From a virus (taxonomy: Duplodnaviria > Caudoviricetes): a stretch of DNA of 64,000 nucleotides. The notes beneath the pieces are model-generated. The model saw only the letters and a list, made by a program, of their open reading frames with translations, ran no database searches and was not told the origin of the DNA. The position numbers and the translations under genes were made by a program. Location: the IMG/VR virus record IMGVR_UViG_3300046713_000250, positions 1,597 through 65,596 of that record; one strand, given 5' to 3'. This document shows, one piece after another, positions 33,071-33,678 of this stretch. Position 1 is the stretch's first letter, and the number at the start of each line of letters is the position of its first letter.

Positions 33071-33142
33071 ACGCATCCGCGAGGATGGGTACCACAACTG
33101 AATAGGTGACCGTCGCCCACGGACGACATGCAGGCGGTCACC

Positions 33143-33212
33143 GCGCGCGTAACTCAACGGCAGAGTGCCCGGACTGTACCGGGAAGTACCGGTTCAATTC
33201 CGGTCGCGCGCA
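33143..33212 (+). tRNA. tRNA-like element with a 6-nt anticodon loop (ACTGTA); isotype undeterminable
   Basis: Acceptor GCGCGCG/CGCGCGC+A; D arm ACTC-AACGGCA-GAGT; CCCGG/CCGGG; T arm ACCGG-TTCAATT-CCGGT. Confidence 0.75.
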
Positions 33213-33423
33213 CGATCAAGTAGCAACCGCACCACGTCGCAATCTCGAAGGTGAGCGGGCGCGAACGATCGCCGAGGACGGAAGGCAGATGCCGTGACGG
33301 ATCGGAGAGACGATCTGGCAGCTCGGGACAGACGAGCACGAGGGGCGGAGCGGAACTGGCGAAAGCCGGCGCATCGCCAGCGAGGGAATGGCCGGTGAGC
33401 TAGCCATCTCCGCCCCTCACCTG

Positions 33424-33554
33424 TCCCGTGTGGCGCAGTGGACAGCGCACCGCCTACCTGATGAGGCAGATTGCGTAAGCCCTCAGACGATGGCCCGGCC
33501 TGATCGACCGGGAAGCTGAGGCGGAGGTCGCCGGTTCGAATCCGGCCACGGGCA
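33424..33554 (+). ncRNA. tRNA-like element with a 63-nt structured insert replacing the anticodon loop
   Basis: CCCGTG/CACGGG; D arm GCGC-AGTGGACA-GCGC; CCGCCT/AGGCGG; AGGTC; GCCGG-TTCGAAT-CCGGC. Confidence 0.75.
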
Positions 33555-33678
33555 CGAGGGGCGGGGGTCAAACCTTGTTCCGGCGGATCTACGCCGGCCG
33601 CCCCTCACCCAAAATGGCCCGGGCCGGGCGCCAACCGAGGGCGCGTCTGGCTCGGGCTTCTTGCCGAGGGGAGCCGGT

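Follow-up and report, generated by a model that had tools for sequence, protein, structure and literature searches.

Why would a phage place about 590 nucleotides (nt) of densely folded DNA between the first gene of its rightward block and the next one? The DNA in question, positions 33071-33662, lies in the window that we analysed (a 64,000-nt stretch of the 65.6-kb IMG/VR virus record IMGVR_UViG_3300046713_000250) and is tiled by closed helices from the first rightward gene to a gene of 80 amino acids (aa). Our best reading of this array, drawn from folding and comparison of sequences, is that of a non-coding RNA operon in which two tRNA mimics (T1 and T2) are combined with self-closed modules (a leader hairpin, module X, twin hairpins, and the modules J1 and J2) and which is closed by a terminator-like hairpin. 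A preliminary description of the locus had proposed a phage small-RNA cassette, a reading that is partly supported by the analysis presented here.

No open reading frame (ORF) with the codon-position GC pattern of this genome (GC at third positions, GC3) is found in 33071-33678. The + strand of the array folds with −291 kcal/mol (z = −4.27, 0 of 100 shuffled sequences being equally stable) and the − strand with z = −2.93, and the G.U pairs of the array helices are compatible with the + strand only. A search of Rfam 15 returned two matches to the tRNA model and no other family above noise, which agrees with the earlier statement that no named family is recognisable: the region is not one described Rfam family. 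Direct reading of the sequence recovered every element of the preliminary description to within 1-2 nt, including the non-coding tiling of the ~590 nt after the upstream gene and the six modules with CAC ends. The terminal hairpin is likewise present, its length being 16 bp with four G.U pairs in the centroid structure instead of the 15 bp first given. The features of the array are as follows.

33074..33087, + strand: GNRA hairpin CATCC-GCGA-GGATG, directly after the stop codon of the first gene
33092..33107, + strand: conserved leader CACAACTGAATAGGTG, the sole A/U-rich single-stranded stretch of the array
33094..33104, + strand: ACAACTGAATA, inside the leader region
33105..33142, + strand: 10-bp stem-loop with one G.U pair, GGTGACCGTC/GGCGGTCACC, abutting T1
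33143..33212, + strand: tRNA mimic T1, with 7-bp acceptor, D arm, T arm and 5-bp anticodon stem
33213..33315, + strand: module X, consisting of P1, joiner GCCGAGGA, P3, a GTGACG joiner and hairpin P4
33213-33217 with 33267-33271, + strand: X helix P1, CGATC/GATCG
33278-33281 with 33292-33295, + strand: X helix P3, paired after the GCCGAGGA joiner
33300-33315, + strand: X hairpin P4 of the GATCG-GAGAGA-CGATC type, first of the twin hairpins
33321..33337, + strand: second twin hairpin GCTCG-GGACAGA-CGAGC, a second P4-type copy, whose stem is that of P4 in the related locus L173
33340..33421, + strand: J1, 11-bp stem GAGGGGCGGAG/CTCCGCCCCTC to 33418, then ACC; 57-nt cargo of two hairpins
33424..33554, + strand: tRNA mimic T2, with 64 nt replacing the anticodon loop
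33556..33609, + strand: J2, 9-bp stem GAGGGGCGG/CCGCCCCTC to 33606, then ACC; one 6-bp hairpin as cargo
33616..33658, + strand: terminal hairpin, then CTTCTT

The tRNA mimics T1 and T2

The two tRNA-like elements are real. T1 and T2 score 54.9 and 44.8 bits with the Rfam tRNA model RF00005, for which the gathering threshold is 29 bits, and both cover the full model (positions 1-71). Both keep a 7-bp acceptor, the GG of the D loop and a T loop of the form TTCRAnn (TTCAATT in T1), so that the tRNA elbow should form. Judged by their anticodon arms, however, both are unable to decode, because the T1 loop has 6 nt (ACTGTA), T2 carries the 64-nt insert, and the intron models proposed for T2 by ARAGORN disagree, its homologues being assigned the conflicting ‘anticodons’ Arg-cct, Arg-ccg and Ile-gat. 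The 7-nt loop with U33 and a 3-nt anticodon that marks a decoding tRNA is found in neither mimic. As the preliminary description had advised, T1 was passed to ARAGORN, which called it ‘tRNA-???’ with a 2-nt anticodon.

In T2, a variable and a conserved hairpin form a junction that is closed by the anticodon stem (33451-33455 with 33520-33524). The conserved hairpin (33494-33512) displays the loop CCTGATCGA in the window and is followed by AAGCTGA. The insert measures 58-64 nt among homologues, compared to ~200 nt or more for a group I intron, and no intron family matched at E ≤ 10. A CTGATGA sequence in T2 was considered as a hammerhead and rejected as a poor fit.

To compare T2 across phages we aligned the window with L172, L005 and L169 (handles beginning with L denote related loci); a relative in L137 was left out, and a scan with a T2 17-mer gave 10 stretches, of which L005 alone was real. 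In this alignment 96.2% of pair cells are standard, compared to 22-48% when partner columns are slid by 1-3 positions. Six pairs changed on both sides, with at least one such change in each of the five helices. The covariation among homologues that had been named as a check is thus present in T2, as it is in module X below. All four sequences have a U.C mismatch at position 1:72 and TA or TG as 5′ loop bases, with no U33. T1 behaves similarly: in the window, in L002/L172 and in L005 the acceptor stem is the same and the D and T arms are near-identical, and the three anticodon arms are all different, none with a 7-nt loop.

The pattern extends to the related arrays, where the acceptor, D and T arms are conserved and the anticodon arm is absent, tetralooped or expanded. 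The 32 matches to the tRNA model comprise 9 ordinary uninterrupted tRNAs, 6 with 6- or 8-nt loops, 11 that ARAGORN accepts only with an ‘intron’, and 6 without any ARAGORN call. One mimic type recurs, having a 6-bp ‘anticodon’ stem capped by a TCAC tetraloop. A 58-nt match in L014 (5512-5569, 55 bits) has acceptor, D and T arms and no anticodon arm at all. The CAC ends have a more general form: CG occupies the two positions after the discriminator in 21 of the 32 mimics (24 if a 1-nt offset is allowed), and CACG is the commonest tetranucleotide across the mimic end (13/32). The mimics lack an encoded CCA at their 3′ ends, and most J stems are followed by ACC.

Conserved modules and their exchange between phages

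Module X was found in ~19 contigs besides that of the window, all from uncultivated high-GC phages or metagenomes. A covariance model (CM) of its 3′ half, R1, built from 20 distinct copies, matched exactly those 20 in 230 kb of related DNA from 23 sources, with 50.7-87.2 bits (62.3 bits for the window copy, 33255-33322). Helix P1 covaries in a 12-copy alignment, with A-U in five copies and C-G in five, the CGATC/GATCG of the window representing a third form; P3 is 94% paired with two compensatory changes. As P4 was misaligned in the CM-fitted alignment (68.9% paired, with two loop lengths coexisting), it was folded sequence by sequence, and it formed at the same place in 20 of 20 copies from about 10 different stems, the loop being GAGAGA or AGA. 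Hardly any variation is seen in the joiners GCCGAGGA and GTGACGG, which suggests a sequence-specific contact. Both were also compared with k-turn and sarcin-ricin motifs and rejected as poor fits. The 5′ half of X occurs in at least three unrelated versions, that of the window being common only to L013 and L168 (95-96% identity).

Pattern scans delimit this distribution. The joiner pattern GCCGAGGACGG-N4-14-CCGTGACGG yielded seven stretches, six of them real and one due to chance; all 10 found with GTGCTTCGTGGNTTGCACGCAGG were real, as were all nine found in metagenome contigs with a longer X pattern (two being contigs already known), and a 30-mer of type-A X gave a single match, L013. Among the at least 120 matches to GCCGAGGACGG...CCGTGACGG listed from bacterial genome contigs, none had the upstream X motif, and four had the hairpin only and were judged to be chance. 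Running R1 over three and then 151 Actinomycetes genomes gave only two matches of 31-32 bits, in coding-looking DNA; as few candidates were scored, this is weak evidence of absence.

The J modules share stems of 9-12 bp (GAGGGG.../...CCCCTC), mostly followed by ACC, around unrelated interiors of 16-83 nt. Such stems occur twice in the window and in L002, L005, L013, L168, L172, L153, L150, L151 and L162; in L014, L015 and L136-L138, a different small gene has a variant, GAGGGGACCGGG, in its 5′ region. Inner pairs vary in a compensatory manner (CGGAG/CTCCG, TCCGG/CCGGG, CGGC/GCCG) and the outer six are fixed. Within the 64-kb window CCCCTCACC is present at J1 and J2 only, a count that is not significant (25 of 100 shuffles reach 2). 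A scan with the J pattern gave 17 stretches, about four of them (L150, L151, L153, L162) in array-like contexts; most of the remaining ones are palindromic repeats of other phage types.

At the head of the array, the exact leader 16-mer CACAACTGAATAGGTG recurs in the arrays of L005, L007 (the L002 contig), L009 and L172, with variants in L137 and L173; a scan gave eight stretches, three real (L005, L007, L009) and five judged to be chance from their low GC or coding context. The leader was tried as a σ70 promoter, and AGGTG as a Shine-Dalgarno sequence, and both were rejected as poor fits. The stem-loop that follows has acceptor-like strands (GGTGAC.../...GTCACC) and is possibly a reduced tRNA-like minihelix. 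Covarying stems occupy its position in L002 and L009, and in L137 the leader precedes a full tRNA mimic with the acceptor GGTGACG/CGTCACC. The GNRA hairpin is the same in L002 and as such offers no evidence of covariation. At the other end, the terminal hairpin is 90% identical to L171 4741-4781 and is probably a terminator or 3′ stabiliser. Only CTTCTT follows it, and a consensus terminator scan made no + strand call; its L002 homologue is followed by TTTTTT.

Five loci (L138, L014, L015, L136 and L137) contain a −10-like hexamer TAGGGT, then CACAACAGACG, then a structure closed by a GAGGGGACCGGG.../...CCCGGTCCCCTC stem, the series forming the 5′ region of the small gene that heads those arrays. 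This order connects transcript starts with the CACAAC leader and with the J-type stem.

When 32700-33950 was compared to 22 related loci by blastn-short, the short blocks of identity ended at module edges. The whole of X (33213-33315) matches L013, where it is 96% identical, and L168; the halves of T1 without the anticodon arm match L002 and L172; 33410-33431 (the 3′ strand of J1, ACCTG and the 5′ end of T2) and 33492-33553/62 (from the conserved hairpin to the 3′ end of T2) both match L005 and L172; and 33617-33657 matches L171. By this comparison, modules are traded between phages with breakpoints at module boundaries. The ‘swappable cargo’ of the preliminary description is borne out, since relatives keep the flanks (acceptor and T arms, GAGGGG/CCCCTC stems) and swap the interiors.

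Module order is partly shared. The array of L005 runs as in the window: leader, T1, X, J1, T2, terminator. L172, the closest relative, has the same genes upstream and downstream, and its array is a longer version of that in the window: the leader and a hairpin come first, then T1, one additional conserved module and X; J, a tRNA mimic and another J lead on to T2 with its insert, after which J, a second X and a terminator complete the series. A strict script test places the start of X directly behind a T arm, acceptor strand and discriminator in 12 of 20 copies, and by reading two further copies follow mimics with non-consensus T loops.

Neither the window nor Rfam contains a further conserved module of ~140 nt (CGGAATACGGAT...GGGGATCGTTACCCCGTCCGATCGC) that lies after a tRNA mimic and before X in L013 (~800-940), L168, L172 (~693-880), L153 and L136. 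Longer arrays of 1.5-2.5 kb in L136, L137, L138 and L014 contain further recurrent modules without an Rfam match at E ≤ 0.5, among them GGTAACAGGAA.GGCCAGC...GGTGAGCC.GGG.CATGCCCTGGAGACCCG...GTACC, which abuts a tRNA mimic, and CGCGAAGGAACG...GC.AACCGAC.CC.

On these comparisons the arrays are a sizeable undescribed family, to which phage tRNA clusters with passenger RNAs, and GOLLD and ROOL, are nearest in kind. At least three RNA families absent from Rfam 15, namely module X, the J modules and the T2-type mimic, each have support from covariation. No DNA like the array of the window or that of L014 is present in 50,697 named phage records (blastn, distant mode), and the literature that we searched on tRNA-like, structured or decoy RNAs in phages and actinobacteria, a coverage that excludes most subscription journals, describes no such arrays. 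Some modules may be listed among the 8,495 IMG/VR candidate RNAs of PMC10690425.

Transcript processing and competing explanations

Recognition by RNase P and by the enzymes of 3′ tRNA maturation depends on the acceptor/T arm and the elbow, not on the anticodon. The structural prerequisites of their substrates, a 7-bp acceptor and a T/D elbow, are present in the mimics, and we propose the following model. The array would probably be transcribed together with the first rightward gene; host RNase P would cut on the 5′ side of each mimic, and a 3′-processing enzyme, proposed to be of the RNase Z type because CCA is not encoded, would cut after the discriminator. One early transcript would thus give rise to several stable small RNAs, the mimics and the modules between them, and J modules ending in ACC could be minihelix substrates too. 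There is a precedent for such a use of a tRNA-like module in an actinobacterium: that of Mycobacterium smegmatis YrlA is in vivo both cleaved by RNase P and extended with CCA, as PMC4201824 reports. Whether the transcript is in fact cut at each mimic into separate stable RNAs we consider an even call. Expression at the head of an operon beside a divergent promoter region suggests that the RNAs might serve host take-over or counter-defence.

Several findings weigh against this model. That the array and the upstream gene share a transcript is an assumption drawn from spacing and strand, and no conserved promoter was identified. X does not follow a tRNA mimic in 8 of 20 copies by the strict test (6 by reading), so the mimics would not be the sole processing signal. 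The outer six bp of the J stems and the joiners of X are conserved in sequence beyond what pairing demands, which points to a sequence-specific protein or RNA partner that the processing model does not name. The 5′ half of the window's X lacks independent structural support, as its sole homologues, in L013 and L168, are near-identical to it and show no covariation. Finally, only four T2 and three T1 sequences stand behind the comparison, and the shuffle control for pairing takes no account of their relatedness.

Beyond processing itself, we offer the tentative and somewhat unlikely extension that these arrays constitute an actinophage ‘tRNA-scaffold’ system. Host tRNA maturation would cut an early transcript into combinatorial RNAs whose cargo, placed at the anticodon position or in a GAGGGG/CCCCUC-ACC clamp and traded as cassettes, would work as aptamer-like inhibitors or as mimics, directed at host factors of defence or translation. 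If processing is real, phages would use tRNA shape as a signal for maturation and stability that can be transferred to other RNAs, and a tRNA-scaffold system would open a new reservoir of functional RNA folds (module X, the J cargos, the T2 junction). The new families stand at an operon head beside a divergent promoter region and are probably early; since they belong to a clade of uncultivated phages with mostly unannotatable proteins, they may provide a testable entry into the first steps of these phages in the cell. The arrays also bear on the old question of phage tRNA-like genes that codon usage does not explain.

An alternative makes the tRNA mimics themselves the effectors, acting as decoys or sponges that capture host factors binding to the acceptor/T arm or the elbow, with the other modules accessory or stabilising. 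Candidate targets would be tRNA-targeting defence or toxin enzymes, RNase P, the CCA-adding enzyme, EF-Tu and synthetases. Compensatory selection on the acceptor, D and T arms, combined with deletion, tetralooping or expansion of the anticodon arm, fits this explanation, as does the invariant U1.C72 mismatch in 4 of 4 T2 sequences. Phage tRNAs have moreover been reported to counter tRNA-targeting defences (PMC10264068 and PMC11555353). A mimic without an anticodon loop, however, would not distract anticodon nucleases, the best-known of those defences; no target is identifiable; and the conserved non-tRNA modules X and J, and their position abutting the mimics, are left unexplained. We regard decoys as an unlikely account of the array.

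It is improbable that the whole region is one large ornate RNA, an actinophage counterpart of GOLLD or ROOL that works as one particle, perhaps multimeric. A mycobacterial cluster of 32 tRNAs harbours GOLLD, which encloses a predicted pseudo-tRNA (PMC6582537). The array is unusually stable, and the conserved T2 hairpin has a loop with a GATC core in all four aligned sequences (CTGATTCA in the L137 relative outside the alignment), which in L005 is an 8-nt palindrome that could kiss itself. Against this, no GOLLD or ROOL model matched 32900-33800 at E ≤ 10 or the five longer arrays (L136, L137, L138, L014, L012) at E ≤ 0.5, and close relatives vary in the number, order and content of modules, with X present one to two times and J one to three times. 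A single conserved tertiary fold is not expected of so variable a make-up.

Less probable again is a cis-acting leader without products in trans, in which read-through of the terminal hairpin (antitermination or attenuation) or RNase III/E sites would set mRNA expression or stability. The region does lie between the first and the next gene and ends in a terminator-like hairpin, related contigs have J-type stems in a 5′ untranslated region and immediately upstream of gene starts as well, and J stems of 9-12 bp could be RNase III substrates. Yet 600 to more than 2000 nt of interchangeable modules with full tRNA shapes go far beyond the need of known leaders, and the arrays differ between phages with the same flanking genes.

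It is highly improbable that the region lacks an RNA function and is a tRNA gene cluster in decay or an element acting at the DNA level (attP or a recombination hotspot): although ordinary-looking tRNAs in related arrays (Gln, Asn and Tyr in L009) suggest descent from a tRNA cluster and modules recombine between phages, every T2 helix, and X too, has compensatory changes, the replacement of anticodon loops by tetraloops or extended helices amounts to redesign, G.U pairs are strand-specific, and an attP overlapping a tRNA gene finds no partner in a 96%-complete record with zero matches to the Phage_integrase and Resolvase profiles of tyrosine and serine integrases.

Genomic setting and known systems

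The record, with an estimated completeness of 96% and a GC content of ~69%, derives from what is, by its annotated gene set and a terminase no more than 36% identical to those of Arthrobacter, Glutamicibacter, Brevibacterium and Microbacterium phages, a distant actinophage-like siphovirus. Annotated in the window are a portal, the terminase, a DnaN-like clamp, a DNA methylase, an SNF2 helicase, ERF, a RecE-like exonuclease, a polymerase exonuclease subunit and a tail tube. Codon-position GC places leftward genes at ~900-32623 and the start of a rightward block at 32753. The following elements lie outside the array.

32651..32656, + strand: TACAGT, putative −10 hexamer between the divergent leftward and rightward blocks, upstream of the first rightward gene
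32753..33070, + strand: first rightward gene, 105 aa, GC3 0.92, with an all-helical predicted model of five helices
33679..33921, + strand: next gene, 80 aa, with its own GGGGAG ribosome-binding site and homologues in L002 and L172
17378-17391 (− strand), 19887-19900, 33925-33938, 37324-37337 and 45920-45933 (all + strand): copies of the 14-mer GGGAGTACAGTAAG

The first gene, previously called an ‘HTH gene’, does not bear out that name. Its product has no Pfam or PHROG match and only weak Atlas leads, and its five-helix AlphaFold model (mean predicted local distance difference test score, pLDDT, of 81.8) found no match in the PDB at E ≤ 0.001. Homologues of 33-83% identity lie upstream of RNA arrays in five loci (L002, L172, L140, L169 and L171; tblastn), the 83% being that of L002, an IMG/VR relative reached by way of this protein. 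A 793-aa protein had no tblastn match among named phages.

The 14-mer GGGAGTACAGTAAG is present five times in the window, one copy having one mismatch, against an expectation of 0.05. As the copies sit directly upstream of gene starts, it is probably a phage promoter (with −10 TACAGT) or an operator, and similar motifs occur upstream of genes in L002 and L005. The hexamer TACAGT is its core, and the copy of the hexamer at 32651 may be the promoter.

Other features of the window stand apart from the array. GATC sites at 33214, 33267, 33300, 33312, 33503 and 33587 appear frequent in its module stems and loops, and the phage carries an N6/N4 DNA methylase gene at 24537-25847 (− strand). A perfect 16-bp hairpin with the loop TTGCGAC (37247-37285) fills a short intergenic gap; a 94-nt ARAGORN ‘tRNA-Arg (gcg)’ at 37232-37325, overlapping both this hairpin and the next ORF, is probably false since it has no Rfam support. 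A 323-aa ORF at 8772-9743 (− strand) has a C-terminal globin domain (Pfam Globin, E = 3.8e-9), an unusual phage cargo, and an ORF at 49392-50267 (+ strand) with a glycerophosphodiester phosphodiesterase domain (GDPD, E = 3.9e-24) lies inside the tail-gene block on the opposite strand.

Among known systems, tmRNA resembles T2 in having a tRNA-like domain in which other RNA structure takes the place of the anticodon arm. Neither ARAGORN nor Rfam called a tmRNA in the window, however; the 64-nt insert of T2 has no tag reading frame, and its best match in the Rfam clan is tRNA. A permuted tmRNA called by ARAGORN in L138 (9515-10060, − strand; tag GPRQAREAGW*) runs across several modules of the array and is likely spurious, produced by tRNA-like halves that lie next to each other. 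A retron non-coding RNA would have an adjacent reverse transcriptase, and the 65.6-kb record has no RVT_1 match; nor were Ro60, a CCA-adding enzyme or RtcB found in it.

The ends of YrlA RNAs lie at the side of the anticodon stem, and such permuted ends are not seen in the array mimics. Like the array, YrlA (RF02553) is a non-coding RNA with a tRNA-like module, and Deinococcus radiodurans Yrn1 has a 6-nt ‘anticodon loop’ of the same size as that of T1 (PMC4201824). The YrlA model gave only 14.8 bits on the array (E = 6.6, the gathering score being 69), and no match to PF05731 (Ro60/TROVE) was present in the record, as opposed to control genomes, which matched.

The T4 RNAs RNAC and RNAD sit in the tRNA cluster of that phage and are processed together with the tRNAs. 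They share with the array the tandem tRNA-shaped genes and extra small stable RNAs of a phage, and their function is still unknown according to PMC9697503. The arrays differ in that most of their tRNA-shaped units are non-decoding and their passenger modules are many, conserved across phages and interchangeable, and they have no sequence or Rfam relation to RNAC or RNAD. GOLLD and ROOL are large structured non-coding RNAs of phage origin, found also in actinobacteria, beside or enclosing a tRNA or pseudo-tRNA (PMC6582537). In the window and related loci tRNA-model matches flank the modules too, as in the tRNA islands of GOLLD and ROOL; unlike these RNAs, the array is modular and variable and lacks one conserved architecture.

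The closest parallels to the proposed cleavage come from eukaryotes. In gammaherpesvirus tRNA-miRNA units and in mitochondrial tRNA punctuation, tRNA shape is put to the same use. The tRNA-like mascRNA and menRNA of MALAT1 and NEAT1 are made enzymatically from their precursors (PMC9777231). In these transcripts, as proposed for the array, tRNA shapes let RNase P and RNase Z split a longer RNA; in contrast to the array, where cleavage at the mimics is a prediction, such processing signals are all eukaryotic, and the literature searched held no example from a bacterial virus. To our knowledge, only eukaryotic cells and their viruses are otherwise credited with this maturation trick. Engineers have devised the same trick in tRNA scaffolds and tRNA-gRNA arrays, and a phage tRNA-scaffold system, if true, would give tRNA-linked non-coding RNA biogenesis its first counterpart in a bacterial virus.

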